In this document: positions 5,798 to 54,509 of the stretch, in pieces
Layout of the letters: each line of letters begins with the position of its first letter
How positions within the stretch are numbered: position 1 is the first letter of the stretch
Source: an uncultured Verrucomicrobiae bacterium
Lineage (GTDB): Bacteria > Verrucomicrobiota > Verrucomicrobiia > Palsa-1439
Length of the DNA stretch: 64,000 bases
Assembly (NCBI GenBank): GCA_963812605.1
Contig: CAWEWF010000004.1
Span: 1-64,000 of the forward strand
Direction of reading: 5' to 3'
Program-made: the position numbers and the translations under genes
Notes under the pieces: generated by a model
Told to the model about the DNA's origin: nothing
Database searches by the model: none
What the model saw: only the letters and a program-made list of their open reading frames with translations

Positions 5798-5800
5798 GAT

Positions 5801-5858
5801 TGTAGCCGCGAATCGCATTCGCGGCCCTTCCCCGCCGCGAAAGAGTTTCGCGGCTACA
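5801..5858. repeat. GTAG-type REP doublet (same family as 22949 and 50593)
   Basis: TGTAGCCGCGAATCGCATTCGCGG...CCGCGAAAGAGTTTCGCGGCTACA. Confidence 0.8.
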
Positions 5859-8475: not shown

Positions 8476-11232
8476 ATGGCTGCCAAAAAATTAAAGTCTT
8501 CAGGTAAGAAAGCGGCGAAGTACGTTTATTTATTCGGAAACGGCAAGGCGGATGGCGACGGCAAGATGAAGCCGTTGCTCGGTGGCAAGGGCGCGAACCT
8601 CGCGGAGATGACGCGCATCGGGTTGCCGGTGCCGCCGGGGTTCACGATCACCACGGAAGTCTGCACGTACTACTACGAGAACAAACAGACGTACCCGCAG
8701 GCGCTCGAGGCGCAGGTGAAAAACGGTGTCACCTTCCTCGAAAACGCGCTGGGCAAAAAGTTCAACAGCATGGACAAGCCGCTGCTGGTTTCCGTCCGCT
8801 CCGGCGCGCGCGATTCGATGCCGGGGATGATGGATACGATCCTCAACCTCGGCCTCAACGACCAGACGGTGCTGGCACTGGCCCACTACAGCAACAACGA
8901 GCGGTTTGCGTGGGACTGCTACCGGCGGTTCGTGCAGATGTACGGCGACGTGGTCATGGGCGTGCAGAAACGCGCCGGCGAGGACCACGAACCGTTTGAA
9001 GTGGTGATCGAGAAACTCAAGCACGAGCGTCATCACGCCGACATTGAAGACACGAAGTTGAGCGCGAATGACCTGAAAGAACTCGTTGCGCGATTCAAGA
9101 AACTGATCCACGAACGAACCGGCAAGGAGTTCCCACAAGACCCGTGGAAACAGTTGTGGGGCTCGGTCGGCGCGGTGTTCGGTTCGTGGATGAACGACCG
9201 CGCGATTGTTTATCGCCGCAAATACGGCATCCCGGCGGAATGGGGCACGGCGGTCAACGTGCAGGCGATGGTTTATGGCAATACCGGCGAGAAATCCGGC
9301 TCGGGCGTGGCGTTCACGCGCGACCCGGCCACGGGCGAAAAGGTTTTCTACGGCGAATTTCTCATCAACGCGCAGGGCGAAGACGTTGTCGCCGGCGTGC
9401 GCACGCCGGAGCCGGTGGCGCAATTGGCGAAGGAAATGCCCAAGGCGTACGCCGAATTGGAGGGGATTCGCCAGAAGCTCGAACGGCATTTCAAGGACGT
9501 GCAGGATTTTGAGTTTACCATCGAAGACGGCAAGGTGTTCATGCTCCAGACCCGCAACGGCAAACGCACGGGTATCGCGGCGGTCCGGTTCGCCATCGAG
9601 ATGGAGAAGGAAAAACTGATCGACTGGAAGACGGCCATCCAGCGCGTCCCCGCCGACCAGCTCGACCAGGTGCTCGCGCCAATCTTCGACCGCCAGGCGG
9701 TCAAGGCGGCGAAGTGCATTGCCAAGGGCCTGCCGGCGGGTCCCGGCGCGGCTTCCGGCAAGATTTACCTCAATGCCGAGCGCGTGGTGGAAGCCGCGGG
9801 GCGCGGCGAGAAGGTGCTGCTGGTCCGCAACGAAACTTCGCCCGAGGATTTGCGCGGGATGATTGCCGCGGAAGGAATTCTCACGGCGAAAGGGGGCGTG
9901 AGTTCGCACGCGGCGCTCGTGGCCCGGCAAATGGGCAAGGTCTGCGTGTGCGGCGCGGCAGCGTTGCAGATCGATTACGCGGCCAAGACGGTCACGGTGG
10001 ACGGCGCCACCTATCATGAGGGCGATTTCTTTTCGATTAATGGCACCGCGGGCGAAGTGTACGCGGGCCAGATCAAGACCGCGGCCTCGGAGGTCGTCCA
10101 GGTGTTGGTGGAGAAGTCGCTGGATGCAAAAGAGAGCCGGACCTTCCAGAACTTCAAGAAGTTGATGGACTGGTGCAGCAAGGTTGCCAAGTTGCAGGTG
10201 CGCACCAACGCCGACAACCCGGAACAAACGGCCAATGCCATCGCCTTCGGCGCGACGGGGATCGGTTTGTGCCGGACCGAGCATATGTTCTTCGAGGGCA
10301 ATCGCATTGACGCGATGCGCGAAATGATCCTCGCGAAGAACGTTGCGGACCGGAAGAAGGCGCTGGCGAAAATCCTGCCGTACCAGCGCGAGGACTTCAT
10401 TGGCATGTTCAAGGAACTGAAGGGCCACCCCGCAACGATCCGGTTTCTGGACCCACCCTTGCATGAATTCCTGCCTAATGATGACGCGGCGCAAAAGGAT
10501 CTCGCCAGCAAGATGGGCGTACCGGTCGAGCGGATCAAACAGCGGGTGAAGGAATTGCACGAGTTCAACCCGATGCTGGGCTTCCGTGGTTGCCGGTTGG
10601 GAATCGTGCACGAGGAGATCAGCGAGATGCAGTCGCGCGCGGTATTGGAGGCCGCCGCGGAAGTGCAGAAGCAGGGCATCAAAGTGAAACCCGAGATCAT
10701 GATTCCGCTGGTCGGTTTCAAGCGGGAACTGGACTTGCAAGTGGCGGTGGTCCATCGCGTCGCCGCCGAGGTCCAGGCGGAGAAGAAGGTGAAATTGAAT
10801 TATCTGGTCGGCACGATGATCGAGGTCCCGCGCGGAGCGCTCACCGCGGACGAAATCGCCGAGACGGCGCAGTTTTTCAGCTTCGGCACGAACGACCTGA
10901 CGCAGACGACGCTCGGCATGAGCCGGGACGACTCCGGCAGCTTCCTGCCGGCGTACCAGGAACTGGAAATCGTGAAGACGAATCCTTTTGCTTCCATCGA
11001 TCAGCGTGGCGTCGGCGAGTTGATGAAGATCGCCGTCGCGAAGGGCCGCCAAACGCGACCCGACATCAAGCTCGGCATCTGCGGCGAACACGGTGGCGAT
11101 CCGAGTTCGGTGGAGTTTTGCCATCGCCTCGGCCTCACGTACGTGAGTTGCAGCCCCTTCCGCGTTCCGATAGCGCGTCTGGCGGCGGCGCAGGCGGTTC
11201 TCAAAGAAGTGAAAAGCGGCAAGGGCCGCTAG
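8476..11232 (+). CDS. ppdK: Pyruvate, phosphate dikinase
   Basis: [44 protein letters not shown]. Confidence 0.98.
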
Positions 11233-11447
11233 AATAACGTTTGCAAAAATCACAAAATAATCGCACGGGGCAATCCTCGGCCCGGTTCTTTGTGGCCCGA
11301 CTACTGCTTTGAACCAAACACGCCCGTGAGACATCTAACATTCAGGTGGTGGATGCGGTTACGAGTCCGGCTTGAAAGTTCTTGCGTCGCGCAAAGTGAC
11401 CGCATAGTTTCGGTACGGGTCAAAAAGCCCCGGCAATTTTTAGCAGT

Positions 11448-13826: not shown

Positions 13827-14245
13827 TTCTTCGTCGCTTGTTCGCTGATCTTGTTCAACTGTTCGAGAAATTGCGCGGCTGGCAAATAGCCATCGATCTC
13901 GGATACTTTCTTGCCATTGGCATCCACGAAGACGATGTGCGGATAACCCGTCGTTCCAAAATCCCTGGACAGCTTTGCATTCCGCTGGGTTTTTTCAGGA
14001 TTCAATTTGACCGCAACGAAATCCTTGGTCAGCTTGGCAGCGACATCCTTGTCACTGTACGTGTCCTTGTCCAGTTTCTTGCACCAGCCGCACCAGTCCG
14101 TGTACAGGTCCACCATCACCAGTTTCTTGTCCTTCGCCGCCGTCACCAGCGCTGCATCGTAGTCGTGGCCCCAGTCCACCTCCGCTGATGCACCGGCGCT
14201 GAGTGCCAGCAATCCCAGAATCGTGACTGTGATGAGTCTTTTCAT
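13823..14245 (-). CDS. Secreted thioredoxin-fold protein
   Basis: Signal peptide, WCGWC, GYP cis-Pro loop. Confidence 0.88.
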   Translation of the reverse strand: MKRLITVTILGLLALSAGASAEVDWGHDYDAALVTAAKDKKLVMVDLYTDWCGWCKKLDKDTYSDKDVAAKLTKDFVAVKLNPEKTQRNAKLSRDFGTTGYPHIVFVDANGKKVSEIDGYLPAAQFLEQLNKISEQATKK

Positions 14246-14257
14246 GACTTCCTTCTG

Positions 14258-16318
14258 TTAGCGCGCGTTGAGCGCAACTTCCTGCGGTTCTGCCTTTGCA
14301 GGCGGTTCGATCCACTTACCGTGCTCTTTGATGAGGGCAATCAATTCGTCCACCGCCTGTTCCTCGGGGATGTGTTGTTTGACCTGCGTCTTGCCCACCC
14401 ACAGCGAAATCCTGCCCGGAGCGGTGCCCACATAGCCGAAATCCGCGTCGGCCATCTCGCCGGGGCCGTTGACGATGCAACCCATCACGGCAATCTTGAC
14501 ACCCTTGAGATGCGCCGTGCGCGACTTGATCCCCGCCGTCACGGTCTGCAGGTCGAACAACGTTCGCCCGCAACTCGGACAGGCCACGTAATCGGTCTTG
14601 AAGGTCCGCGCCCCGGCACCTTGTAAAATGTTGTAGGCAAGTTTGACTGATTTCAGCAAATCGTCTTCTCCCATGACTTCCATCGCATCGCCAATACCAT
14701 CGCACAACAGCGCGCCAATGTGAGTGCTCGCGCGGATCAGCGCGCCCTGCTGCGCATGATGGGCAGGCCCGGAACTAACGCGGTCGCGTATCAAAATCGG
14801 CAGGTTCAACCCCTGATTGTCCAGGGTAGCCGCCAGAATACGGTACGCCGCAATCCCATCCAACCCTTCCGCGTGACCGACAGCGAGAATCACCTGATTC
14901 TTCCGGAACGTCTTCAACACGCCTGACAGTGAGGCACAGTTGTTGGCGAATTGCCCGGGCGAACCACCCTCGATATCGAACTGGACGGTTAGCCTGGCGG
15001 CGTCCGTCAATAATGCGGTGACATCCTCCCGGCCGTTATACGGGACGTTGATTTTCTCGGCGACATCGGTCACCGGCAGCGTCACTTCCGCGCTATCCAG
15101 TTTCACCGCAATCGGCGTGTGGATGTGCCGCTTGCGTAGTTCCGGTTTCAGCGCGGCGATTTTGCCAATATCCGCCATCGTCTTGACGTGAAATTGAAGA
15201 ATCTCCGCAAACGTATCCGGTTCCGCGGTCGTGACGCGCTGGATGTCGCCGATACGCGCGGTCAACGACACGGGTAGTTCGACGCGTTGTGGGTGGTCCT
15301 TGCCAAGGCGCAAACGCAAATCGCCGATGAAATACTCGGGGGTGGGCCGTCGCGTATACGTAAAAGGATCGCGCTTTTCGGTCACCGACAGGGACGCCGG
15401 GGACGCCAGCTTTCCCGCCCGCTGTTGCTCCCAGAGGTCGTTGTATTTTTTGACCAATTCCCGGCAAACCGGGATTTCGTGCACGCTGTCCTCGGTGAGG
15501 GAGACGCGCACCGTGTCGCCGATGCCGTCTTCGAGCAGCGCGCCGATGCCAATGGCGGACTTGATGCGACCGTCCTCCCCTTCCCCGGCTTCCGTGACGC
15601 CGAGATGCAAGGGATAATTCCAATCCGGGCCTTCTTCGTTCAATCGCGCGACGAGCAATCGATAGGCCTCGATCATCACCTTCGGATTGCTGGCCTTCAT
15701 GGAGAGAATGATTTCGTGATAGCCGCACTTGCGGCACAGGCGGACGAATTCCAGCGCGCTCTCGACCATGCCCAGTGGCGTGTCGCCGTAACGGTTCATG
15801 ATGCGGTCGGAGAGCGAACCGTGGTTCGTGCCGATGCGCAGGGCGCGGCCCAATTCCTTGCATTTGAGCACCAGCGGCGTGAAGGCCTTTTCCAGGCGCT
15901 CCAACTCGTCGGCGTACTGGTCGTCCGTATACTCGCGGGTGGCGAATTTCTTGCGGTCGGCGTAGTTGCCGGGATTGATGCGGATTTTCTCGCACCAGAG
16001 CGCCGCCTCCATCGCGGCTGATGGGACGAAATGAATGTCGGCGACAATCGGCGTGTGGTGGCCGCGCTTCCGAAGTTCGGCCACGATGTTCTTGAGGTTC
16101 TTCGCATCATTGATGCTCGGGGCGGTGATGCGAAGGATTTCGCAACCAGCCTCGATAATCGGGAGGGCTTCGTTGATGCAAGCCTCCGTTTTCATCGTGT
16201 CAGAGATCAGCATCGTTTGGACGCGGATCGGGTTGTCGCCACCGACACCGACCGGACCAACCTTCACTTCGCGCGTGATGCGCCGCTGCCAAAAAAAGGG
16301 ATTCGCGCAGTAGTTCAT
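14258..16318 (-). CDS. ispG: HMBPP synthase, long three-domain form
   Basis: VADIHF, RINPGN, RIGTNHGSLS, HLGVTEAG, CPSCGRT, AVMGCIVNGPGE. Confidence 0.96.
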   Translation of the reverse strand: MNYCANPFFWQRRITREVKVGPVGVGGDNPIRVQTMLISDTMKTEACINEALPIIEAGCEILRITAPSINDAKNLKNIVAELRKRGHHTPIVADIHFVPSAAMEAALWCEKIRINPGNYADRKKFATREYTDDQYADELERLEKAFTPLVLKCKELGRALRIGTNHGSLSDRIMNRYGDTPLGMVESALEFVRLCRKCGYHEIILSMKASNPKVMIEAYRLLVARLNEEGPDWNYPLHLGVTEAGEGEDGRIKSAIGIGALLEDGIGDTVRVSLTEDSVHEIPVCRELVKKYNDLWEQQRAGKLASPASLSVTEKRDPFTYTRRPTPEYFIGDLRLRLGKDHPQRVELPVSLTARIGDIQRVTTAEPDTFAEILQFHVKTMADIGKIAALKPELRKRHIHTPIAVKLDSAEVTLPVTDVAEKINVPYNGREDVTALLTDAARLTVQFDIEGGSPGQFANNCASLSGVLKTFRKNQVILAVGHAEGLDGIAAYRILAATLDNQGLNLPILIRDRVSSGPAHHAQQGALIRASTHIGALLCDGIGDAMEVMGEDDLLKSVKLAYNILQGAGARTFKTDYVACPSCGRTLFDLQTVTAGIKSRTAHLKGVKIAVMGCIVNGPGEMADADFGYVGTAPGRISLWVGKTQVKQHIPEEQAVDELIALIKEHGKWIEPPAKAEPQEVALNAR

Positions 16319-18901: not shown

Positions 18902-18994
18902 CGCTGAATAGGGCGATTGTAGGGCAGATGCGCCGCTTGCCGAAACAAAAAAGAATGGTCGATCAATGGTTGTCTGCGTAAAGTCTCGTTCAGA

Positions 18995-22916: not shown

Positions 22917-22948
22917 CGCCAGGTGGATCTTGATACTGTCGCCAGAAT

Positions 22949-23078
22949 TGTAGCCGCGAATCGTATTCGCGGTGTCTTCCTGCCGCGCCGCGAAAAAGTT
23001 TCGCGGCTACAAAACTGATGTAGTCGCCCCGCTCTGTCGGGGCGCTTCCCGGCACGGCGACAGAGCGCCGTAACTACA
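22949..23078. repeat. Two tandem GTAG REP doublets between convergent genes
   Basis: 22949-23011 (same family as 5801) and 23019-23078, TGTAG...CTACA with internal hairpins. Confidence 0.75.
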
Positions 23079-29202: not shown

Positions 29203-29301
29203 CTACCGCCGCTTGCGGCTGGGGCTGAAGGAGTAACTTTTCATCGAACGGACGGCGCGGACGCTACGGCGGTGGTCGTAGATCGTCATTTCCTCGAACA
29301 G
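29203..29301 (-). repeat. Dead copy 1 of the DEAD-box helicase 3' end
   Basis: Encodes LFEEMTIYDHRRSVRAVRSMKSYSFSPSRKRR*; the live gene ends LFEEKQISGDRRSVRAVRTMKGYSFSPSRKRR*. Confidence 0.92.
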
Positions 29302-29341
29302 CACACTTGAAGCGGTAAGGGAAACCGAGTACAGTTTCGTC

Positions 29342-29993: not shown

Positions 29994-30093
29994 CTACCGT
30001 CGCTTGCGGCTCGGGCTGAAGAAATAACCTTTCATCGTGCGGACGGCGCAGATGCTGCGTGGGTCGTGGAGGTGGTTTTTCGAAGAACAGCGG
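29994..30093 (-). repeat. Dead copy 2 of the DEAD-box helicase 3' end
   Basis: PLFFEK/HLHDPRSICAVRTMKGYFFSPSRKRR* with a 1-bp frameshift. Confidence 0.9.
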
Positions 30094-30664: not shown

Positions 30665-31888
30665 CTATCGTCGCTTCCGGCTCGGGCTAAAGGAATAACC
30701 CTTCATCGTGCGGACGGCGCGGACGCTGCGGCGGTCGCCGGAAATTTGTTTTTCTTCGAAAAGCGGAGTCAAAACGTAATCGAAGTTCTCCAGCTTGAGT
30801 TGCGGGATTTTCTGGCCGATGAAGCGTTCGATGGCGCGGAGGTATTCGAGTTCCTCGATGGTCACGAGCGTAAAGGCGTCGCCCACCTTCTGGGCGCGGC
30901 CTGTGCGCCCAATGCGATGGACGTAATCCTCGGGATGTTGCGGCACATCGTAGTTGATCACGTGCGTGACGCCCTCGACGTCGAGCCCGCGCGCGGCAAT
31001 GTCGGTCGCCACCATCACCTCGTATTTGCCGGACTTGAAGCCGTCGAGCGCCTCGACGCGTTCGCGTTGCGTGCGGTTCGAATGCAACGCTGCCACCGAG
31101 TGCCGCTCGGACCGCAACCGGGTCGCGATCTTGTCGGCACCGTGCTTGGTGCGCGAGAAGATGAGCACGCTATCGAAATTCGTGCGCTGCAGCAACGCGG
31201 AGAGCAATTGAAACTTCTGGCTGGTTGCGACAGGATAACAGGCGTGCGTGACCGTCTCGGCGGGCGAACGACTCGCGCCGATTTCGATCTTCTCGGGATT
31301 GTGCAGCACCCACGCGGCGAGTTGTCCGATCTCCGGTGGAACAGTCGCCGAGAACAGCAGCGTTTGCCGTTGCTTCGGACAACGGTCGATGATCTTGCGC
31401 ACGTCGGGCAGGAAACCCATGTCGAGCATGCGATCCACTTCGTCGAGCACCAACAAATTCACGTCGCGCAAATGCAGCGACCCCTGCCCCAACAGATCCA
31501 AGAGCCGCCCCGGCGTCGCGACCACAACGTCCACACCCTGTTGCAATTCCTGTTTCTGGTTGCCGTAACCGACCCCGCCGAAGATGACCGCCGTCTTCAT
31601 GTTGGTGAAGCGCCCATACTCGTGAAAAGCCGTCTCGACCTGCGCCGCCAACTCGCGTGTCGGCTCGAGCACGAGGCAACGGCATTTGCCGTGCGTCTTG
31701 AGCAGCGTAAGGATCGGCAGGGCGAACGCGGCGGTCTTGCCCGTGCCGGTTTGCGCCGCGCCGATAAGATCTTTGCCGGCCAGGATGACCGGGATGGCCC
31801 GTAGTTGAATCGGTGTCGGCACGACATAACCCGCGGCCTGCACGCCGCGCACGACCTCTTCAGAAAGTCCAAGTTGTTTGAAAGGCAT
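30665..31888 (-). CDS. DEAD/DEAH-box RNA helicase (RhlE-like)
   Basis: PTPIQ, AQTGTGKT, PTRELA, DEVD, SAT, HRIGRTGR. Confidence 0.95.
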   Translation of the reverse strand: MPFKQLGLSEEVVRGVQAAGYVVPTPIQLRAIPVILAGKDLIGAAQTGTGKTAAFALPILTLLKTHGKCRCLVLEPTRELAAQVETAFHEYGRFTNMKTAVIFGGVGYGNQKQELQQGVDVVVATPGRLLDLLGQGSLHLRDVNLLVLDEVDRMLDMGFLPDVRKIIDRCPKQRQTLLFSATVPPEIGQLAAWVLHNPEKIEIGASRSPAETVTHACYPVATSQKFQLLSALLQRTNFDSVLIFSRTKHGADKIATRLRSERHSVAALHSNRTQRERVEALDGFKSGKYEVMVATDIAARGLDVEGVTHVINYDVPQHPEDYVHRIGRTGRAQKVGDAFTLVTIEELEYLRAIERFIGQKIPQLKLENFDYVLTPLFEEKQISGDRRSVRAVRTMKGYSFSPSRKRR

Positions 31889-33900: not shown

Positions 33901-34380
33901 ATGCGCAAAATTAACACGAAGGACATCGCTGAGGTGTCCTGGTCGTCGCCCAAGGGAAAGTTCGTCGGCGCTGGCAAGGAGGTCTCGGAGGAATTGGGCC
34001 GCAAACCGCAATCGACCGACCTCAAGGAGCGGCACCCTTTCGATGTCGAAATCTGCCGCATCCCGCCGGGCAAGACCCCCTACCCCTATCACTCCCACAG
34101 CGCGCAATGGGAGTTTTACCACGTGATCTCCGGCAAAGGCATCGTCCGCCACAAGGACGGAACGACCGCCATTGAAACCGGCGACGCTTTCCTCTTCCAC
34201 CCCGGCGAACCCCATCAGATTACCAATGACGGCTCCGAAGATCTCATCCTCTACGTCGTCGCGGACAATCCGATTGGCGAATCCTATTACTACCCCGACA
34301 GCAGGAAATGGAGCGTCGCTTCACCCGAGCGCCGAATCATCCGCTCCGATGCCCTCGACTACTACGACGGCGAGGAGTGA
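33901..34380 (+). CDS. Cupin-domain protein
   Basis: PYHSHSAQWEFYHVISG, PGEPHQ, YYPDS..DYYDGEE. Confidence 0.88.
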   Translation: MRKINTKDIAEVSWSSPKGKFVGAGKEVSEELGRKPQSTDLKERHPFDVEICRIPPGKTPYPYHSHSAQWEFYHVISGKGIVRHKDGTTAIETGDAFLFHPGEPHQITNDGSEDLILYVVADNPIGESYYYPDSRKWSVASPERRIIRSDALDYYDGEE

Positions 34381-34396: not shown

Positions 34397-35707
34397 TCAG
34401 CGATACGCGATCGCAGCTTCCAGCGCCGGGTCGCGTCCCGCAAGCACGTTCTGCCACGAAGTCGGCGTCGCAATATCCGGCAGACGTGAAGGAGGGTCAT
34501 CCCCGGTGGTAATCTTGAAGTGTTTGGTGGAATAACGCACCTGCAACTTGGAATTCGGCAGTTCCAATACGCGAACGTCACCATAACCGTTGGGTTTGCC
34601 CCCGGTGGGTTCGCCAATCAGGATGGCCTGGAAATGGAACCGCTTCGCATCGTCGGCAAAACTGTTATGAAATTGCTCCGCCACCCATTCCCCGGAGGAA
34701 AAGGTCGACGGTCCAATCAGCACAAAGAGATGGCCGGTCGCATTAATGGCGGGATTGGATGAGACGGCTTCCAGCAACGGCCGCACAACGTCAGAGTTCC
34801 CTCCTCCGTTATAACGGACATCGATCACCAAACGGCCCACCGAGTGAGCGCCAATAAATGCAAACGTCTCTTTTACGAATTCCTGGAAAGACTGTTTCGG
34901 ATCGTCTTCGCACACGTTGTATTGAAGGAACAATGTCTGCGAATCCGGCAAATACTCGCGCCAGTAAAACGCTGTTGGATTACGGCGACTGAGCCGCGTC
35001 GGCAGCTCCAGGGCCTCTGTGACCGTGACTCGTCCGTTTGCGTTTGTGCTCGCGCTCCAGTCCGATGGCGAGACAGAAAGAGACCAGACATTGGTTCCCG
35101 CATCCGCAAAGGCAAGTTCGAGAGATCCATTCGACGCGGCCTGCAGGTGCTGCAATAATTCAGCCGACATCATGTACTCGGGACTTTGTTCCCGCAGCCA
35201 GGTTTCATTTTCATGTGCAATGTAGGGGGCAAGATTTGTCAGCAGTTGCTCCGGCGTCATTTTACCGATTCGAACCACGCGCTTCCCCAACGCCCGCCGA
35301 TACTCGGGCGCAGCAGCAATCACATAGCATCCGTCGGAATACCAGCGCAGCCACAATGGATACCGCTGAAAGGCGAGCGCGCCGGAGGTCGGCAGCGCGA
35401 GTCGCGTGTGCGAAACTCCGGCGGCCGCAACCAACCGTAGCAGGCGAATCACGATCTCCGTGTCGGAAAGTTGTGCGACAGAGTTTTTGATCTGCGCGAT
35501 CTCGCTCTGGAACGTTTCCTTCGGAACAAGCTTGTAAAAGTCCTTGTGCTTCTCCGGCAGGTTCGTCCCCAGGAAATCGAGGTCCTGACGCCAGTGCTCT
35601 TCGCGAACAGCGTTGTTCGTGTACGTTTGCGCTTGAATCAGTGGTCCCGAAACGCCAACGGCCGCAGAGACAACCAGAGGAATTAACTTTATGAATCTGG
35701 TTTGCAT
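34397..35707 (-). CDS. Secreted S41-family peptidase-like protein
   Basis: Signal peptide, IDVRYNGGG, TFSSG, GEPTGG, DPALE. Confidence 0.8.
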   Translation of the reverse strand: MQTRFIKLIPLVVSAAVGVSGPLIQAQTYTNNAVREEHWRQDLDFLGTNLPEKHKDFYKLVPKETFQSEIAQIKNSVAQLSDTEIVIRLLRLVAAAGVSHTRLALPTSGALAFQRYPLWLRWYSDGCYVIAAAPEYRRALGKRVVRIGKMTPEQLLTNLAPYIAHENETWLREQSPEYMMSAELLQHLQAASNGSLELAFADAGTNVWSLSVSPSDWSASTNANGRVTVTEALELPTRLSRRNPTAFYWREYLPDSQTLFLQYNVCEDDPKQSFQEFVKETFAFIGAHSVGRLVIDVRYNGGGNSDVVRPLLEAVSSNPAINATGHLFVLIGPSTFSSGEWVAEQFHNSFADDAKRFHFQAILIGEPTGGKPNGYGDVRVLELPNSKLQVRYSTKHFKITTGDDPPSRLPDIATPTSWQNVLAGRDPALEAAIAYR

Positions 35708-35802: not shown

Positions 35803-35844
35803 ATCCGCTCCAACGCCCTCGACTATTACGACGGCGAAGAGTGA
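35803..35844 (+). repeat. Dead copy of the cupin gene 3' end
   Basis: 38/42 nt identical to 34339-34380; RSNALDYYDGEE* versus RSDALDYYDGEE*. Confidence 0.92.
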
Positions 35845-36048
35845 ACAGGCTCCGTAGTTTATCACTAATTGGAGGGCGAGCCTCTCGGCAAGCCGCACCT
35901 CTCGATAATTTCCTCTCCCCATTTCCAAGCCGATTGTAGGGCGAGCGCGTCGCTTGCCGTCATTCGCGTCGCTCTTTTATGCTTTCCTCGCGGTTCCGTC
36001 AGGGGTTTAATTACAAGGAGGTATTTGGATCACCATCCAGTGATATTT

Positions 36049-43318: not shown

Positions 43319-43501
43319 CTACTCTACGACAACGTGATGTCCGTGGAACTCCCCTTCCAGACGTACTTTACGTGAATTGATGAGGTCGGCCACGATGTAC
43401 GCGCCGAGCTGCTCGTCACGCGTCAATTCGTTGACTGTGGAGATCAATTCCGCCAGTGTTGGAGGGCTCTTACGGGTGGACTTCGTTCCATTCTGTTTCA
43501 T
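43319..43501 (-). CDS. Small hypothetical protein
   Basis: 60 aa, TLAELISTV..VADLINSRKVRL. Confidence 0.5.
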   Translation of the reverse strand: MKQNGTKSTRKSPPTLAELISTVNELTRDEQLGAYIVADLINSRKVRLEGEFHGHHVVVE

Positions 43502-43628
43502 GCGTGAGTATTTAGCAGGCGACGTGCCATGTCCCGTTCTCGGGGCTCCGAGCACGGAGTTGCGAGGGACGGGCTTGGTAGCTTGACTCAGGGGGGTATT
43601 TTTGGAATGGTTCCGCTGCACAACGGCT

Positions 43629-43704
43629 GGGGATGTAGCTCAATTGGTAGAGCGCCTCGTTCGCAACGAGGAGGTCAGGGGTTCGAATCCCCTCATCTCC
43701 ACCA
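43629..43704 (+). tRNA. tRNA-Ala(CGC)
   Basis: Complete cloverleaf, G3:U70, CCA end. Confidence 0.97.
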
Positions 43705-43721
43705 GTCCTTTTATCCATGAC

Positions 43722-44658
43722 ATGGGCGACACTTCACTTCTGCCTTCGTCGGACACCGACGCGCTGTTGCGCACGATTGGCAACACGCCGCTCATCCCGC
43801 TCCTGCGCATCGGCCGGGAATTCCCCGGCGTCCGCATTTTCGCCAAGGCCGAGTGGTTTAATCCCGGCGGCTCGGTGAAAGACCGCGCGGCTTACCGCAT
43901 GATTCGCGCCGCCGAGTTGTCGGGCCGGCTCACGCCGGGCAGAATCATCCTCGACGCCACGAGCGGCAATACCGGTATCGCCTACGCGATGATCGCCGCG
44001 CGGCGCGGGTACCGCTGCAAATTACTGATGCCCGCCAATGCCAGCACCGAACGCAAGAAACTCCTCCAGGCGTATGGCGCTGAGGTTGTTCTCACGGACC
44101 CCAGCGAAGGCAGCGACGGCGCGTTCTTCGCAGGCGCAGCGTCTTTACAAGGAGCAACCGGATCTCTACGTGTATCCCGACCAGTACGGGAACACTGAAA
44201 ACCCGCGCGCTCACTACGAAACCACCGGCCCCGAGATCATCGAGCAGACCGCCGGCAAGATTACGCATTTCCTCGCCGGTCTCGGCACGAGCGGTACCAT
44301 GATGGGCACGGGGAAGCGGCTCCGCGAGTTTAACCGCGACATCAAGCTCGTTGCCGTCCAGCCCGATGGCCCGTTTCACGGACTCGAAGGACTCAAGCAC
44401 ATGGAAACGACGTCGCACATCCCCGATTTATACGACGCCAAAGTTCCCGACCAAATCGTCGGTATCTCCACGGAAGCCGCGCAGCAAATGGCCAAACGCC
44501 TGACCCACGAAGAGGGCCTTTATGTCGGCGTGAGCGCCGGCGCCGCCATTTGCGCCGCGCTGAAGATCGCGGCCACGATTCAGGAAGGCGCGCTCGTCGC
44601 CATTTGTCCCGACGCCGGCAACCGTTACCAAAGCGAGAAATTCTGGGAGACTGCATGA
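43722..44658 (+). CDS. cysM: Cysteine synthase (CysM/CysK family), one frameshift near 44130
   Basis: IGNTPL, NPGGSVKDR, TSGNTG, GLGTSGT. Confidence 0.85.
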
Positions 44659-44673
44659 ACGCACACAGTCAAG

Positions 44674-44768
44674 CCCCTCACCCTAACCCTCTCCCTCAAG
44701 GGGAGAGGGGACCGGCGAGCAGACAGCAGTTTCCTCTCCCCTCCGGGGGAGAGGATCAAGGTGAGGGG
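44674..44768. repeat. CCCCTCACCCTAACCCTCTCCC-type palindromic repeat doublet
   Basis: CCCTCTCCC..GGGAGAGGG hairpins in inverted arrangement. Confidence 0.7.
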
Positions 44769-44788
44769 GGCGGAGCGGTTCGTTGCAC

Positions 44789-45193
44789 ATGAAACTCTCT
44801 CAACAACTCCTGCATCAAATCCGCCAACACCTCGAAGCGGGGTATCCGAACGAGGCTTGCGGCGTGATGCTGGGGCAAAATGGGATCGTCAGCGAAGTGG
44901 TTTCCGCGGACAATCAGCGCACCGATAGCGCCCGCAATAGGTATCTCATCGATCCGCTGATCTACCTGAAGATCGAGCGGGAGGCCGACAAGCGCGGGTT
45001 GCAAGTGCTCGGCATTTATCATTCGCATCCCGATGTCGCGGCCCGGCCATCGCAGTTTGACCTCGATCACGCGTGGCCCGATTTTTCGTACCTGATCATT
45101 TCGGTCGTCAAAGGCAAAGCGATGGAATCGAATTCCTGGCGGTTGCGGGACGACCGTTCGGCCTTCGACCAGGAGAACATCGAAGTTTTATAA
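44789..45193 (+). CDS. JAB/Mov34 (Mec-like) metallopeptidase
   Basis: YPNEACG, YHSHPD..PS..D. Confidence 0.92.
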   Translation: MKLSQQLLHQIRQHLEAGYPNEACGVMLGQNGIVSEVVSADNQRTDSARNRYLIDPLIYLKIEREADKRGLQVLGIYHSHPDVAARPSQFDLDHAWPDFSYLIISVVKGKAMESNSWRLRDDRSAFDQENIEVL

Positions 45194-45210
45194 AGGCAAC
45201 AGCCGTCTCA

Positions 45211-46269
45211 ATGAGATCTATGGGCAACCACGCGTCCGGTTTTGATTGGGCTGACGGGCTGCACCGATTCAAATTATTCAAACGGCGTTTTGGTCACGGC
45301 CGGGTGCCTGCATACTGGGAAGACGACCCTATTCTGGCCTGGTGGGCAGCCAGGCTGCGCACGCGTTTGGATCGCTTGACACAGGAACAGATCAGGCAAT
45401 TGTATGGCCTAGGTTTTTATTTTGGGTCGGTGCTGACGGCGTGGGTGGGACGTTACTTGGATTTGGCCAAATACCGGACCAGGAACGGTCATTGCAACGT
45501 GACCGAAAGAGTAGACATGTCCCTAGGGCGCTGGGTGCAACATCAACGTGCCCTCAAACATCGCCTGGATGCGCAACGTCTCAAACTGCTAAACCGCCTC
45601 GGATTCGACTGGTCTCCCATCAACACGCTTTGGGGAGAGAGGGTGGCAGAGCTACACACATTTAAGCAAGGACATGGCCATTGCCGCGTGCCACACCATT
45701 ACCCGGAGTATCCCCATCTGGGAATTTGGGTGAGCAACGTGCGCAGGAAGCGCGATAAGCTTTCTCCGCTACGCCGCCGCCAACTGGATCGGATGGGCCT
45801 AAACTGGGCGCCGCTCGCCTCCTCGTGGGAGGCGCGGGTTCAGGAAGCGGTAATGTGGCGAAAGCTTCACGGCAACTGCCAACCACCGTTCGAGTCTCCA
45901 TTAGGGCGCTGGCTGGCCAAGCGACGGGCAGCCTTTGCGGCCGGGAAGCTCAGTCAGCAGCGCAAGCGGCGATTGGAAAAGCTGGGGGTTGAGCTTAGAC
46001 CATTCCAGTCAAGGTGGGAAAGGCGGTTTACAGAACTCAAAGCCTACAGGGCGCGCCATGGTCACTGCAATGTGCCCCGATCCTGCCCAAAGAATCCTGC
46101 TTTGGGTTTTTGGGTAAGCAAGCAACGCTACTTCAAAGATCGTCTCACTCGCAAGCAGATCGTCCGCCTCAACCAACTCGGCTTCCGCTGGCGGATCCGC
46201 CCGCCGAGACCGCCGCGCGGCCGTCACAGTTCGACCTCGGTCACGCGTGGCCCGATTTTTCGTACCTGA
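45211..46269 (+). CDS. Helicase-associated (HA) repeat protein
   Basis: Repeated W...HGHCxVP...LGxWVxxQR...LxxLGFxW units; its stop lies inside the JAB tail copy. Confidence 0.8.
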   Translation: MRSMGNHASGFDWADGLHRFKLFKRRFGHGRVPAYWEDDPILAWWAARLRTRLDRLTQEQIRQLYGLGFYFGSVLTAWVGRYLDLAKYRTRNGHCNVTERVDMSLGRWVQHQRALKHRLDAQRLKLLNRLGFDWSPINTLWGERVAELHTFKQGHGHCRVPHHYPEYPHLGIWVSNVRRKRDKLSPLRRRQLDRMGLNWAPLASSWEARVQEAVMWRKLHGNCQPPFESPLGRWLAKRRAAFAAGKLSQQRKRRLEKLGVELRPFQSRWERRFTELKAYRARHGHCNVPRSCPKNPALGFWVSKQRYFKDRLTRKQIVRLNQLGFRWRIRPPRPPRGRHSSTSVTRGPIFRT

Positions 46270-46370
46270 TCATTTCAGTCGTCAAGGGCAAGGCTGTGGA
46301 GTCGAATTCCTGGCGGCTGCGGGACGACCGTTCGGCGTTCGACCAAGAGGCTGTTGAAATTCTCGCGTAG
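46212..46370 (+). repeat. Dead copy 1 of the JAB gene 3' end
   Basis: AARPSQFDLGHAWPDFSYLIISVVKGKAVESNSWRLRDDRSAFDQEAVEILA* versus live 45038-45193. Confidence 0.95.
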
Positions 46371-46408
46371 ATTATCACCAGCGCCTACGTAGATCCGTGC
46401 GGCGATTA

Positions 46409-46635
46409 TCAACGCAGATTCCGGGAAAATTCCTCCGGGGACAGTCGGATATCCTTGATAATCTGTCGGAGAAGAAACGGCGAAACGTCTCGACCCGCAT
46501 GAAAGGGAACAGTCGTTCCGCGACCGTCAGCATGACGATACTGCTTGTGCGAACCGCGCTGACGGACCTCGACGAACCCAAGTCTTTCAGGACCTTTTCC
46601 ACCTCACGCGCCTTCAGTACCGGGAGCCGGGCCAT
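46409..46635 (-). CDS. HicA-family toxin, 1-bp frameshift near 46577
   Basis: Reconstructed LG/FVEVRQRGSHKQYRHADGRGTTVPFH. Confidence 0.82.
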
Positions 46636-46641
46636 GCATGC

Positions 46642-46848
46642 CTAGACGCTGATGGCTTGCGTTCCGATGAACTCAGCTTCGAGCTGCGGCTCGCCGTCCT
46701 CCAGAAGCATCCCAACAACCTCCTTCAGATTGTCACGCAACTCTTCAAGTGTCGCGCCCTGAGAGTGTGCACCGGGAAACCCGGGAATATATCCCACGAA
46801 CAGGTTCGTCTCCGGGTCACGTTCGACAACGGCGGTGAAGTTTCTCAT
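46642..46848 (-). CDS. HicB-family antitoxin
   Basis: FTAVVERD..PGFPGAHSQGATLEEL; TTGACG-17-TACTTT promoter, leaderless start. Confidence 0.88.
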   Translation of the reverse strand: MRNFTAVVERDPETNLFVGYIPGFPGAHSQGATLEELRDNLKEVVGMLLEDGEPQLEAEFIGTQAISV

Positions 46849-46899
46849 GCCCAGAAAGTACCGTTCCACAAGGGAAACGTCAACCCCACCGCCAAGTTA

Positions 46900-46928
46900 A
46901 AGAGGCTGTTGAAATTCTGGGGCGATAG
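46900..46928 (+). repeat. Probable dead copy 2 of the JAB gene 3' end
   Basis: AAGAGGCTGTTGAAATTCT identical to 46345-46363; reads EAVEILGR*. Confidence 0.65.
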
Positions 46929-46959
46929 GCTAGACTGGGTCTTGCGGGTAATAGCGAAT

Positions 46960-47020
46960 TGTAGGGCAAGCGGCCCGCTTGCCACTTATTAATAGCGCCA
47001 ACCGGGCCGGTTGGCCTACA
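46960..47020. repeat. GTAG REP doublet
   Basis: TGTAGGGCAAGCGGCCCGCTTGCC...GCCAACCGGGCCGGTTGGCCTACA. Confidence 0.7.
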
Positions 47021-47049
47021 AATCGTGTTTGCAAAAAATGGAGAGAACG

Positions 47050-48537
47050 ATGGCTATTAAAGTCACAATTCCAACGGCCTTGCGTCGCTTTGCCAACGGA
47101 CAGACGACGGTCGAGGTGGCCGGCGTAACGATCAACGAGGTGCTCGGCAACCTGACCGCAGAGCATGCCCAGTTGCGGCCCCATCTCTACAGCGAGGACG
47201 GCAAGCTGCGGAATTTCGTGCGCGTGTACGTCAATGACGAGGACATTCGCGCCCGGGGCGACAATGCGCCCGTCAACGAAGGCGACGAGATTTCCATCGT
47301 GCCGTCGATTGCGGGTGGCAACCTTGCCAAACTTGAGCCGATCATCAAAGATCGCGCGAAGCTGACCAATGACGATATCAAGCGGTATTCGCGACACCTG
47401 ATCCTGCCGGAAGTCGGCGTCGAGGGCCAGGAGCGGCTCAAGGCGGCGAAAGTATTGCTCATCGGCTCGGGTGGACTTGGTTCGCCGATCGCGCTATATC
47501 TGACGGCGGCGGGAATTGGGACGATTGGGATGGTCGAGTTCGACACGGTCGATTTCAGCAATCTCCAGCGGCAGATCATTCATTTCACGGGCGACGTGGG
47601 GAAACACAAGCTCCAGAGCGCCGAGGAAAAACTCAAGGCGATCAACCCGAACCTCAATTTCATCCCCCACCCCGTCAAGCTGACGAGCGAGAACGCGCTC
47701 GACATTATCAAGGACTATGACCTCGTCCTCGACGGCACGGACAACTTCCCGACGCGTTATTTGGTCAATGACGCGTGCGTGATGCTCAAAAAGCCGAATG
47801 TGTACGGCTCGATCTTCCGCTGGGAAGGCATGGCCAGCGTGTTCGCGCCGCACCTGGGTGGTCCCTGCTATCGTTGCTGGTATCCCGAACCGCCGCCGCC
47901 GGGGCTCGTTCCGAGTTGCGCGGAGGGCGGCGTGCTCGGCGTCATCTGCGGCATCATTGGCAACATCCAGGCGAACGAAGCCGTCAAGCTCATCATCGGC
48001 AAGGGCAAACCGCTCATGGGCCGGTTGCTGCGGTTTGACGCGATGGACATGAGCTTCCGCGAGTACAAAATTCCGCGCGACCCGAATTGTCCCGTGTGCG
48101 GCAAGAATCCGACCGTAACCGAACTAATTGACTACAACCAATTCTGCGGCATCGGCCGCGGAGAGGACGAAGGTTCCTCAGGAGATTCCATCGTGGAAAA
48201 AGTTGACACGGGCCTCGGCCCCGACGATATCAGCGTCGAGACGCTCAAACAAATGCGCGACCGCAAAGACGATTTTGTCCTCGTCGATGTCCGCAATCCC
48301 GACGAGTTCGAGATTTGCGTCATCGACGGTTCGGTGAAACTTCCCTTACCGGAGTTGCCGCAGCGGTTTCAGGAACTGCCGAAGGACAAGCTCGTGGTCC
48401 TGCACTGCAAGTCCGGTGGCCGTAGCGGCCGCGCGGTGAAATTCCTCAAGACGCAGGGCTACAGTAAGGTCAAGAACGTCGCCGGCGGCATCAATGCCTG
48501 GGCCGAACGCATCGACCCGGACGTGCCGCAGTATTAA
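47050..48537 (+). CDS. moeB: MoaD/CysO-MoeB(ThiF)-rhodanese fusion (MoeZ-like)
   Basis: Ubiquitin-like domain ending VPSIAGG; RYSRHL, GSGGLG, SNLQRQ, CYRC, CPVC; rhodanese HCKSGGRS. Confidence 0.93.
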   Translation: MAIKVTIPTALRRFANGQTTVEVAGVTINEVLGNLTAEHAQLRPHLYSEDGKLRNFVRVYVNDEDIRARGDNAPVNEGDEISIVPSIAGGNLAKLEPIIKDRAKLTNDDIKRYSRHLILPEVGVEGQERLKAAKVLLIGSGGLGSPIALYLTAAGIGTIGMVEFDTVDFSNLQRQIIHFTGDVGKHKLQSAEEKLKAINPNLNFIPHPVKLTSENALDIIKDYDLVLDGTDNFPTRYLVNDACVMLKKPNVYGSIFRWEGMASVFAPHLGGPCYRCWYPEPPPPGLVPSCAEGGVLGVICGIIGNIQANEAVKLIIGKGKPLMGRLLRFDAMDMSFREYKIPRDPNCPVCGKNPTVTELIDYNQFCGIGRGEDEGSSGDSIVEKVDTGLGPDDISVETLKQMRDRKDDFVLVDVRNPDEFEICVIDGSVKLPLPELPQRFQELPKDKLVVLHCKSGGRSGRAVKFLKTQGYSKVKNVAGGINAWAERIDPDVPQY

Positions 48538-48619
48538 GCGGCGGTTCAGGGTTCTCGGTTCTAGGTTGTAGAATCCTACGACGTACTTCCGGTCAATGGC
48601 CTCTGGGAGCGCGGACGAT

Positions 48620-49676: not shown

Positions 49677-49718
49677 GGCTCGGTGAAACTCCTGTTACCG
49701 GAGTTGCCACAGTACTAG
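49677..49718 (+). repeat. Dead moeB 3'-end copy A (internally deleted)
   Basis: GSVKLLLPELPQY* joins live 48328-48363 (GSVKLPLPELPQ) to the terminal PQY*. Confidence 0.85.
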
Positions 49719-50500: not shown

Positions 50501-50553
50501 CCGAAAGACATGCTCGTGGTCCTGCACTGCCATTCTGGTGACCGCAGTACTAG
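50501..50553 (+). repeat. Dead moeB 3'-end copy B (internally deleted)
   Basis: PKDMLVVLHCHSGDRS versus live PKDKLVVLHCKSGGRS (48379-48426); ends CCGCAGTACTAG. Confidence 0.85.
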
Positions 50554-50592
50554 GGCACGGTTTTGGGTTCGCGGTTCACGGTTCACGATCAT

Positions 50593-50621
50593 TGTAGCCG
50601 CGAATCGCATTCGCGGCTACA
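50593..50621. repeat. Single GTAG REP hairpin preceded by GGTTCAC-like heptamers
   Basis: TGTAGCCGCGAATCGCATTCGCGGCTACA. Confidence 0.75.
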
Positions 50622-50726
50622 AACGGCGGCTGGCTCGTCAATGGCCGTGTCCAGATGCGCCCGCATGTTCCTGCCACGATTCTGTGCGCTTGCCGGCATC
50701 TGGCCGCGTTGGCATACTCCGCGTCA

Positions 50727-51322: not shown

Positions 51323-51379
51323 ACCGGGGGAATCGACGCCTGGGCCGAACGCATCGACCCGAACGTCCCGCAGTACTGA
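51323..51379 (+). repeat. Dead moeB 3'-end copy C
   Basis: 48/57 nt identical to 48481-48537; TGGIDAWAERIDPNVPQY*. Confidence 0.92.
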
Positions 51380-51415
51380 GGCGGTTGCAGGAAACATGGT
51401 GCACCTTAACAATAT

Positions 51416-52099: not shown

Positions 52100-52240
52100 G
52101 AGGCCGTTGAAAAACCAATGAATCTTTGCCTCCGGTTGTAGGCCGACTCTGTGAGTCGGCGATTTCTTTAAGGATTTCGCCGCTTCGCAGAAGCGGCCTA
52201 CAGGCCGGGCGGTCGGAATGTGACATTTTTCAACAGCCTC
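52100..52240. mobile_element. MITE with 15-bp TIRs and AGTA target duplication, enclosing a REP doublet
   Basis: GAGGCCGTTGAAAAA / TTTTTCAACAGCCTC; AGTA on both flanks; TGTAGGCCG...CGGCCTACA inside. Confidence 0.75.
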
Positions 52241-52820: not shown

Positions 52821-53015
52821 CCGGGAGGGGGTTTTGAGGGTCCTTTTTAATGAAAAGTGGATTTGTTTACGAAGAATAAAGCCATGTCGCGGGTACAAAG
52901 GACGGTGTTCGCGGAACGCCAACAGTCTTGTGATTCTGTGGCGCTCTCGGTAATGTCTGGCGAACCGATGGCGGCGATCCATCGGGTTCGAAACGCAATT
53001 AACGAGGATTCCATC

Positions 53016-54509
53016 ATGATCGACCAACCCATGACCCGTCGTGAAGCGTTGAAGACGGCGACTGCCATCGGCGTTTCTGCGGCGCTGTCTCCCCTGGCCG
53101 CGCTGGCGGACGCGGCCACGACCGAACCGGCGGTCCGCAGGGCCGCCACCATCTCCATTGCGACGAGCCCGGCTCCGTTTGCGCGCCAGGACGTCGGCAA
53201 GCTGCTCGACGACCTCCAACAACGGGCGGGCGTGAATGTGATCCTCCCGTTCATGTATACCCACGGAGCGGTGCGGGCGGGTCTGCCGGCGGAGGGATTT
53301 CGCGGCGGAAATTTCGCCATCCCGCACATGGAATATTACAAGGACACGGGCCTCACGTACGACGATATGCGCGGCACGGAATTTGGCGATGTGGATGTGT
53401 TCGCCCGCCTGATTCCCGCGGCCCACAAACGCGGCATCAAGACTTTCGGGTGGATCATCGAGGACAACCGACGCCCCGCCATCCCGCATTGGGAACCGCT
53501 GTACGAGGTTGATTTCTATGGCCGGCGCGCGGAAAGCCATCCCGGCGGCCCGTGCTACAATAATCCCCGCTATCGCGCCTGGCTTCTGGGACTCGTGGAA
53601 GATTACGCCCATTCCTATGAAATCGATGGCATCATGTGGGGATCGGAACGGCAGGGCGCATTCTTCAATGCGCTCGGCGCCCAGCTTGATGGCGCAAAGA
53701 CCGATCCCGGCAAGGTCACCTGCTTCTGCATATACTGTGTGAAGAAAGCCGAGGGCCTGGGGATCGACGTTGAGCGGGCGCGGCGCGGGTTCGGGGAACT
53801 GGAAACGTTCGTCCGCAACGGCCGGGCCAATCAGCGTCCCCGGGACGGATACTTTGTCGTTTTCTGGCGGCTGTTGCTAAAGTACCCCGAACTGCTGGCG
53901 TGGGACAACCTGTGGGTCACCAGCCGTCATGAAATGCAACGCGATCTTTACCAGAAGATCAAATCGATCAAGCCGTCGCTCATCGTCGGCTGGCACTTGT
54001 GGCACAATTTGTCGTTCAGCCCATTTCACCGGGCGGAAGAAGACTACGCGGAGATGACCGGCTGGTCTGATTTCATCCGGCCCGCGCTGTATAGCAATTG
54101 CGCCGGCGAACGCATGCGCAGCTTCGTGGACAGCACGCATGGCAACGTCTTTGGCGACGTGCCTCCCGGCCAAACGCTCGATCTGCTGTACCGGGTGCTC
54201 GATTACCAGGAAGCACCGTACGACAAGGTGACGTCCACGGGGTTCACTGCCGACTATGTTCTGCGGGAAACCCGGCGTACGCTGGAAGGCGTCGCCGGCA
54301 CGTCGACGCAGGTCTGGCCGGGGATCGACATCGACGTACCCGTGCACGCTGGTACCAGCCAATGCACGCCGGAGAGCGTCAAACAGGAAGTGCTCGCCGT
54401 CTTCAAGGCCGGCGCCCAGGGAATCATGCTCTCACGCAACTATGTTGAGATGAAACCCGAGAACCTCGCCGGTGCCGGCGCCGCATTGCGGGAACTCGGA
54501 CTGCGTTGA
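53016..54509 (+). CDS. Tat-exported protein, probable glycoside-hydrolase-like TIM barrel
   Basis: TRREALK Tat motif, GAGGA RBS, CYNNP.YR, IDGIMWGSE, CFC..C. Confidence 0.7.
   Translation: MIDQPMTRREALKTATAIGVSAALSPLAALADAATTEPAVRRAATISIATSPAPFARQDVGKLLDDLQQRAGVNVILPFMYTHGAVRAGLPAEGFRGGNFAIPHMEYYKDTGLTYDDMRGTEFGDVDVFARLIPAAHKRGIKTFGWIIEDNRRPAIPHWEPLYEVDFYGRRAESHPGGPCYNNPRYRAWLLGLVEDYAHSYEIDGIMWGSERQGAFFNALGAQLDGAKTDPGKVTCFCIYCVKKAEGLGIDVERARRGFGELETFVRNGRANQRPRDGYFVVFWRLLLKYPELLAWDNLWVTSRHEMQRDLYQKIKSIKPSLIVGWHLWHNLSFSPFHRAEEDYAEMTGWSDFIRPALYSNCAGERMRSFVDSTHGNVFGDVPPGQTLDLLYRVLDYQEAPYDKVTSTGFTADYVLRETRRTLEGVAGTSTQVWPGIDIDVPVHAGTSQCTPESVKQEVLAVFKAGAQGIMLSRNYVEMKPENLAGAGAALRELGLR

Follow-up and report, generated by a model that had tools for sequence, protein, structure and literature searches.

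This study concerns the 3′ end of a JAB peptidase gene in an uncultured Verrucomicrobiae bacterium (Palsa-1439). The DNA analysed, called the window hereafter, is the whole stretch of 64,000 nucleotides at positions 1 to 64,000 of the forward strand of contig CAWEWF010000004.1 (GenBank assembly GCA_963812605.1). The region is a cysM–JAB–cysO/moeZ operon on the plus strand. Its first gene encodes a cysM-like cysteine synthase (43722–44658; Pfam PALP was matched by both halves of the open reading frame, ORF). It is followed by the live JAB/Mov34 peptidase gene (44789–45193, 134 aa), which ends in ...FDQENIEVL before a TAA stop at 45191–45193, and by the cysO-moeZ fusion (47050–48537; Pfam ThiS, ThiF and Rhodanese), which is the native gene after JAB. 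The JAB protein matched Prok-JAB (PF14464, E 1.3e-25) in the Pfam scan and had 1094 homologues at E ≤ 0.001, and direct reading of its translation found the metal-site motif H-x-H-x7-S-x2-D as HSHPDVAARPSQFD. The JAB fold with its metal site, together with the PALP and ThiS-ThiF-Rhodanese neighbours, identifies the product as a Mec-like JAMM peptidase.

The initial annotation had described three JAB ends in series at this locus, and all three were located. The live tail, R1 (45038–45193, plus strand), comprises the last 51 codons and the stop and ends in ENIEVL. The displaced tail, R2 (46212–46370, plus strand), runs in the JAB frame from AARPSQFDLGHAW to ...FDQEAVEILA and a stop, and gives a weak Prok-JAB match. 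The third copy, R3 (46900–46928, plus strand), has only nine codons; it consists of a 19-mer followed by GGGGCGATAG and reads EAVEILGR before a TAG stop at 46926–46928. The repeat search returned R1 and R2 as part of a direct repeat of 155 nt (45021–45175 and 46195–46349) with 86% identity, and over 138 gap-free coding nucleotides the two are 89% identical. The 19-mer, AAGAGGCTGTTGAAATTCT, occurs in exactly two copies, at 46345–46363 and 46900–46918; 0.02 matches with at most three mismatches were expected, and none of 100 shuffles gave two matches. R2 and R3 are identical at 19 of 19 positions of the 19-mer, as against about 11 of 19 for R1 and R2 (read from the alignment), which agrees with the earlier remark that the outer copies resemble each other more than either resembles the live gene. 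Past the shared 19 nt, R2 (CGCGTAG) and R3 (GGGGCGATAG) diverge sharply, with a length difference of 3 nt. The tail tips are homologous variants of six to eight residues (ENIEVL, EAVEILA and EAVEILGR), and no unrelated toxin tips with immunity genes were found among them.

The DNA between R1 and R2 carries an ORF of helicase-associated (HA) repeats (45211–46269, plus strand, 352 aa), in which Pfam HA (PF03457, E 5e-72) matched five stretches. It was noted earlier that this ORF has no stop of its own and terminates within the JAB copy in another frame; it does so 58 nt into R2. Its nearest homologues besides itself are 36–40% identical, have 487–494 aa and contain two more repeats. The ORF aligns to their repeats 1–5 and ends at the repeat boundary where R2 begins. 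Since the alignment to the seven-repeat homologues stops there, we conclude that the HA gene was cut at the junction, and the imprecise joint proposed in the initial annotation was thus borne out. The similarity to JAB starts at about 46212, and the 17 positions to the left of the 46211/46212 joint show only patchy matches to JAB (10 of 17, by direct reading). A quasi-palindrome centred on GGATCC (46179–46212; inverted repeat with 20-nt arms, 80% complementary) spans the HA/R2 junction and is the probable illegitimate joint.

The DNA between R2 and R3 holds hicA and hicB genes, both on the minus strand. The hicA toxin gene (46375–46635; HicA_toxin PF07927, E 1.4e-16, in a shifted frame at 46412–46603) contains a 1-nt deletion at about 46575, reading GGTTCGTC where GGTTTCGTC would hold the frame. 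The toxin may be inactivated, or the frameshift may be a sequencing error. The hicB-like antitoxin gene (46642–46848) is intact; it matched UPF0150 at 29.1 bits, above the cut-off, and HicB_lk_antitox at 23.7 bits, below the cut-off of 27. A minus-strand promoter-like site (GTGGCA-16-TACAAT, 46958–46985) faces hicB, and it lies outside the 555-nt hicBA insert and within a region of repetitive extragenic palindromic (REP)-like hairpins. The G+C content of the inserts (57–58%, with 58.5% for the window) was uninformative.

The native state of the junction was read from relatives. A contig scan with the JAB protein matched 600 stretches and confirmed 546 relatives; 80 were retained, and the genome of the window is not among them. 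Eleven of the 80 loci are from Verrucomicrobiota, with JAB proteins 72–84% identical to that of the window, and the cysO-moeZ products of relatives are 86–93% identical. JAB and cysO-moeZ were both present in nine of these 11 loci and were separated by 8–100 nt in seven of the nine, the exceptions being L005 (1742 nt) and L007 (1762 nt). Over all 80 loci, cysO or cysO-moeZ followed downstream on the same strand in 69, and the gap exceeded 300 nt in only five of these.

In six relatives (L001–L004, L008 and L011), the native end of JAB and the spacer behind it run colinear with R3 and the next 45 nt or so; one such native end and spacer that aligns with R3 reads GAGGCAGTTGAAATTTCC...GATAGACT. 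Because of this colinearity, we take R3 as the original JAB end, still joined to its native spacer. EAVEIL-type ends are normal for the family (EAVEILG in four and EAVEILR in one of the 120 listed JAB homologues), and the 19-mer is therefore taken as JAB coding sequence.

The initial annotation had also considered that the 19-mer at 46900 might be a solo end of an insertion sequence (IS), which would leave only one copy of the tail. R3 runs on into native JAB-end and spacer sequence. The element behind that suggestion resembles a miniature inverted-repeat transposable element (MITE) of 141 nt (52100–52240). Its inverted repeats are 15 nt long (GAGGCYGTTGAAAAA), AGTA looks like its target duplication, and two REP-like hairpins lie inside it. 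A 13-mer of the 19-mer, GAGGCTGTTGAAA, does match both of its inverted repeats (0.04 expected). The reading of R3 as a MITE or solo IS was rejected, as relatives show the motif to be an ancestral part of the JAB coding sequence and the flank of R3 resembles the MITE only in generic REP hairpins. Elsewhere the motif turned up in a single one of the 80 fetched loci (L012, at an unrelated site), and we judged the match between the MITE repeat and the JAB end to be a coincidence.

The two Verrucomicrobiota loci with wide gaps have a similar layout. Each gap holds one minus-strand gene for a secreted-looking protein, which matches Laminin_G_3 in L007 and had no Pfam match in L005. In L005, a diverged second JAB end with the start of the spacer lies just upstream of cysO (score 25, with a null maximum of 17 in 300 shuffles). 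The remnant in L007 aligns with the native junction of the family. The insertions in L005 and L007 are independent and differ in their cargo, so the junction has been struck independently at least three times. Tail remnants were also sought in three non-verrucomicrobial loci with large JAB–cysO gaps (L041, L039 and L032), and none was significant.

A possible reason for the persistence of R3 was found in the overlap of the gene end with a promoter-like site. The motif TTGAAA-16-TAGACT lies upstream of cysO-moeZ (46909–46936, plus strand) with its −35 hexamer inside R3, and it is the sole promoter-like match on the plus strand within 44600–47200. The form TTGAA[AT]-16-TA[GC]ACT is present upstream of cysO in the window and in eight of nine relatives, the exception being L010, in which the genes are 8 nt apart; in L002 the same site overlaps the JAB stop. 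When the junctions are aligned, the promoter-like positions form the invariant columns. The window, L005 and L007, which are the three genomes with an insertion, each have the site in the remnant, and it was found in none of the four live or intermediate copies (R1, R2 and the live tails of L005 and L007). The JAB end and a candidate promoter of cysO-moeZ would therefore overlap, and R3 has probably been retained because the −35 box lies within the last JAB codons. An insertion at such a junction would be tolerated only when the overlapping stretch is doubled, so that one copy finishes JAB and one drives cysO-moeZ; after the doubling, one copy would stay coding and the other would keep the promoter.

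The divergence of R1 and R2 speaks to their past function. They differ at 15 of 138 nt, with 13 synonymous and two non-synonymous differences in 46 codons (dS 0.57, dN 0.019). The dN/dS comparison that had been proposed for the tails gave about 0.03 over these 46 gap-free codons, and this value shows purifying selection on R1 and R2 alike, so that both were live ends, in separate lineages. When the differences were polarised site by site against ten relatives, the R2 branch had about six changes (five synonymous, one non-synonymous) and the R1 branch about five (four synonymous, one non-synonymous), and four differences were ambiguous. If R2 were non-coding, at most one non-synonymous change in six would have a probability of about 0.004 (binomial calculated by hand; non-synonymous site fraction, 0.76). 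R2 was therefore functional as the end of a gene during almost all of the time since it separated. Its one amino-acid change, D to G in FDLDHAW, affects a position at which all 10 relatives and all 12 close proteins inspected have D, and it looks like decay after displacement. The dN/dS of 0.03 and the mostly synonymous R2 branch mark the tail tips as laterally acquired.

R1 and R2 share 89% identity, and no fetched relative exceeds 85.5% with either of them. As their mutual likeness is thus the greater, R1 is an allele imported from a fairly close relative and not the product of divergence in place. The ENIEVL end is rare among the 120 listed homologues, being found in P0001 only (99% identical), with ENIEFL in P0005. 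An attempt to recognise the native tail by its nearest relative was uninformative, since both tails are closer to each other and outgroups polarise single sites only. The claim that the newest copy lies nearest the gene is upheld by these results: R3 stands in its native context, R2 was live until recently, and R1 is the imported allele.

Taken together, we consider it reasonably probable that two successive gains of foreign DNA at the JAB 3′ end were nested here, and that the fossil tails arose by one-sided, homology-anchored displacement of the C-terminus. In the ancestral state, JAB would have ended in ...EAVEILGR (R3) about 50 nt before cysO-moeZ. A first event would have brought the 0.5-kb hicB-hicA cassette into the last JAB codons, so that JAB now ended in ...EAVEILA (R2) and the last 19 or more nucleotides of the old end (R3) were displaced downstream. 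In a second event, DNA of a related bacterium, carrying its own JAB tail (R1, ENIEVL) and then the HA-repeat gene, would have recombined into JAB by homology on the left side and by an illegitimate joint at JAB codon 84 on the right side, which removed the end of the HA gene. R1 would thereby have become the live end and R2 a fossil. The left sides of the inserts are in-frame JAB sequence. The incoming DNA would consist of a JAB tail and the downstream sequence of its donor, with the right joint falling upstream of the resident end, and the route may have been either homology-facilitated illegitimate recombination or one crossover involving a fragment that had been circularised. The displacement model accounts for the loss of the HA gene's end, for the abruptness with which R2 begins and for the synonymous divergence of R1 and R2, as well as for the newest-nearest-gene order and the sharp difference between R2 and R3 after 19 nt.

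Several points weigh against this account. The closest JAB proteins (87–92% identical) come from metagenome contigs outside the compared loci. No donor with JAB ending in ENIEVL and a full HA gene was found among the 120 listed homologues and 80 loci; the same holds for JAB ending in EAVEILA followed by hicAB, an arrangement that the initial annotation had proposed to look for in relatives (0 of 120 homologues with such a live end, and none of the 80 fetched loci with a HicB match). The model requires that the cargo already lay beside the JAB tail in the donor, and it leaves the first insertion unexplained. The remnant of L007 is weaker than that of L005 and not significant when compared with the live tail of L007 (score 14; 95th percentile of the null, 15). 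The promoter is no more than a match to the consensus, with sigma-70-type use in the host assumed, and TTGAAA also codes for part of Val-Glu-Ile in live genes. The cysM-like gene is broken into two frames by one extra nucleotide near 44150 (by comparison with L001 and L002), so that the gene is a true pseudogene or else has been misread in sequencing; if the frameshift is real, it may indicate relaxed selection on the operon. Finally, the three right-hand joints (in the window, L005 and L007) lie within about 12 nt of each other. This clustering can be read in two ways, as selection, which would keep the −35 box and a repeat short enough for stability, or as a site-specific mechanism.

Integrative elements that target the 3′ ends of genes and supply a replacement end (attL/attR) are well known, and they include integrase-less, cis-mobilizable ones. 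As in such elements, direct repeats of a 3′ end flank the inserts here, the gene is left intact, and the newest copy stands beside the gene, as in tandem arrays. The JAB 3′ end might then be an attB site for a tyrosine or serine recombinase, the hicBA and HA segments being what is left of small elements, integrative or cis-mobilizable, and the repeats being attL and attR. The close right-hand joints would suit this explanation, and so would the exact cores in the flanking repeats (19 nt for hicBA and a 36-nt run in R1/R2), although these cores are equally explained by ordinary homology. We regard it as unlikely, however. Pfam found no integrase or transposase domain in any of the 55 ORFs of the window that reach 115 aa, and the inserts have no genes other than the HA gene and hicBA. 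They are just 0.5 and 1.2 kb long with one or two genes each, and one cargo gene is cut. By direct reading, the cargo boundaries in the window, L005 and L007 have no common motif, and no shared element ends were found. The truncation of the HA gene at the junction is more in keeping with breakage at random than with the end of an element, and the HA junction lies 155 nt away from the other junctions.

A duplication of the target at each insertion, by a long staggered cut or by landing in a small tandem duplication already present, with the copies diverging in situ, is quite unlikely. The exactness of the 19-mer pair is what a recent duplication would give. The pair of ends in L005 (about 57 nt, about 75–80% alike) decays in a complementary manner, the live copy having lost the promoter spacing and the remnant keeping it, and this also favours such an origin. 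For R1 and R2 this explanation is rejected, as 13 of their 15 differences are synonymous and the R2 branch is about 5:1, unlike a non-coding copy. The sharp break between R2 and R3 after 19 nt fits two alleles better than uniform decay, and the repeat search found no terminal inverted repeats on either insert.

The initial annotation spoke of alternative C-termini, which would imply a working array in which the cell switches the JAB tail among stored C-terminal cassettes. Three in-frame tails with stops do stand in series, but the tails encode nearly one peptide (two differences in 46 residues plus the last six to eight residues), and nothing points to switching. The repeats are all direct, so that recombination would only delete; no recombinase or invertase was found among the 55 scanned window ORFs; and R2 has lost an invariant Asp, while R3 has only nine codons. 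A working array is accordingly very improbable, and the tails are not a functional cassette or switching system but by-products of two insertions. Tandem joining of the haplotypes of two co-occurring strains during assembly is just as hard to credit: the source is metagenome-assembled, the 89% identity of R1 and R2 resembles two populations and the contig has at least two 1-nt frameshifts, but the exact 352-aa HA protein, which spans the HA/R2 junction, is found on two contigs, HicB and MoeZ are likewise recorded on two, a separate 213-kb contig carries a JAB that differs by one residue, the HA/R2 joint has no shared repeat to mislead an assembler, and L005 and L007, from other assemblies, have the same architecture.

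Displacement of C-terminal ends has been proposed in other systems. For rhs loci it was proposed to occur by homologous recombination through circular intermediates (Jackson et al. 2009, PMC2935791), and for type VI secretion system (T6SS) effector arrays by homology-facilitated illegitimate recombination (Kirchberger et al. 2017, PMC5361080). According to what these sources state on rhs, contact-dependent inhibition (CDI) and T6SS arrays, the dissociated fragments repeat the conserved region and have ends of their own, and the newest tip is on the gene with older ones displaced downstream and decaying, as observed here. Unlike this locus, the tips they describe are unrelated toxin domains with immunity genes whose diversity is selected. 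The gene here is a housekeeping peptidase of a cysteine-synthesis operon with near-identical tails; its cargo (the HA-repeat gene and hicBA) has no evident tie to the tail, and the oldest remnant is seemingly kept for its promoter.

Homology-facilitated illegitimate recombination itself was described in transformable bacteria (PMC3240628, cited in PMC5361080), and PMC5361080 also refers to work on it in Acinetobacter, Streptococcus and Pseudomonas. With a homologous anchor on one side and an illegitimate joint on the other, it introduces DNA for which the recipient lacks a homologue, which is like the arrangement proposed for the JAB locus. The described cases come from laboratory selections, whereas here the process is deduced from sequence alone.

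The operon has the gene set of the mycobacterial Mec/CysO/CysM/MoeZ cysteine pathway (PMC3227635), namely a pyridoxal phosphate-dependent cysteine synthase, a JAMM peptidase, a ThiS-like carrier and a ThiF-rhodanese activator. It differs from the mycobacterial pathway in that the carrier is fused to the activator, with an internal ...SIAGG, and the genes form one tight cluster. The ThiS-like sulfur carrier occupies 47050–47340, ends in ...SIAGG and is fused in frame to the ThiF-rhodanese activator, and this ThiS-ThiF-rhodanese fusion is conserved across Verrucomicrobiia relatives. To free the fused carrier, the JAB peptidase would have to cleave after the GG.

Tail copies were also found at other genes. 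The last 48 nt of 45 window genes were compared with the 6 kb downstream, with upstream and mid-gene controls. A strong downstream copy was found for three of the 45 genes (JAB, moeZ and a cupin gene) and an upstream copy for none of the 45; the mid-gene control gave one of 45, a case explained by PKD repeats in tandem inside a single gene. Three downstream fragments about 85% identical to the end of cysO-moeZ (48328–48551) lie at 49677–49712, 50501–50547 and 51324–51391, separated by a membrane protein gene with PadR, a peroxiredoxin gene and an ORF6N gene. The last codons of cysO-moeZ, CAGTACT(A/G), close every one of the fragments, as if joined at a short CCGCAG repeat. Queries with HA, HicB, membrane/PadR and ORF6N gave no match in the 80 fetched loci. 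The last 42 nt of the cupin gene with its stop (34339–34380) recur at 35803–35844 with 90% identity, and a minus-strand gene of 436 aa (34397–35707) lies between the cupin tail and its copy, in the same layout of tail, cargo and remnant. The JAB array is thus one instance of a recurrent process in this genome.

Other features of the window were noted. A tRNA-Ala gene (43629–43704) precedes the operon and was the sole match in the Rfam scan of 43500–48600 besides sub-threshold miRNA-type ones. The spacer between cysM and JAB is filled by a 22-nt inverted repeat, 86% complementary (44674–44768), to which Rfam gave only such miRNA-type matches below the threshold. A pair of REP-like TGTAGG...CCTACA hairpins (46956–47025) stands in the JAB–cysO spacer and is absent from the spacers of relatives. 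It belongs to families of REP-like TGTAG...CTACA hairpins, also found at 5799–5858, 22943–23017, 50589–50631, 18914–18942 and 35931–35959, which often lie just downstream of gene ends, beside tail remnants. TrwC relaxase and AAA_30 domains were found on two adjacent ORFs (486–2349), 43 kb from the JAB tails, and these may be the remnant of a conjugative element. In L004, a 42-residue fragment (11142–11267) of the native gene after moeZ (window 52857–54506) lies 2.6 kb upstream of the full gene (13854–15356) and may be a displaced gene start. A 100-nt sequence occurs in three copies, 67–78% identical (29203–29302, 29994–30093 and 30665–30764; spacing 791 and 671 nt), which are probably the conserved starts of tandem paralogous minus-strand genes.

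The papers listed under 'C-terminal displacement' dealt mostly with bacterial toxin and secretion loci and otherwise with unrelated topics, and none of those listed concerned housekeeping genes. What we describe is a variant of a known evolutionary pattern in an unusual place and reveals no new molecular machine. Two gene gains within a compact biosynthetic operon have left a clean record here that can be dated, and the locus indicates that tail displacement, so far described for polymorphic toxin loci, also occurs at ordinary genes. A broader proposal, that this Verrucomicrobiia lineage has an active, integrase-independent mode of gene addition at resident 3′ ends, by cassettes with replacement tails and with the overlap of gene end and promoter forcing the duplication, seems improbable to us; its traces would be the three of 45 window genes and the two other independent hits on the JAB/cysO junction in other species. 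The case suggests a rule for gene ends that overlap the promoter of the next gene: an insertion would persist there only if it doubles the overlap, after which the copies split the two jobs. Tail fossils could mark one-sided recombination genome-wide in uncultured bacteria.

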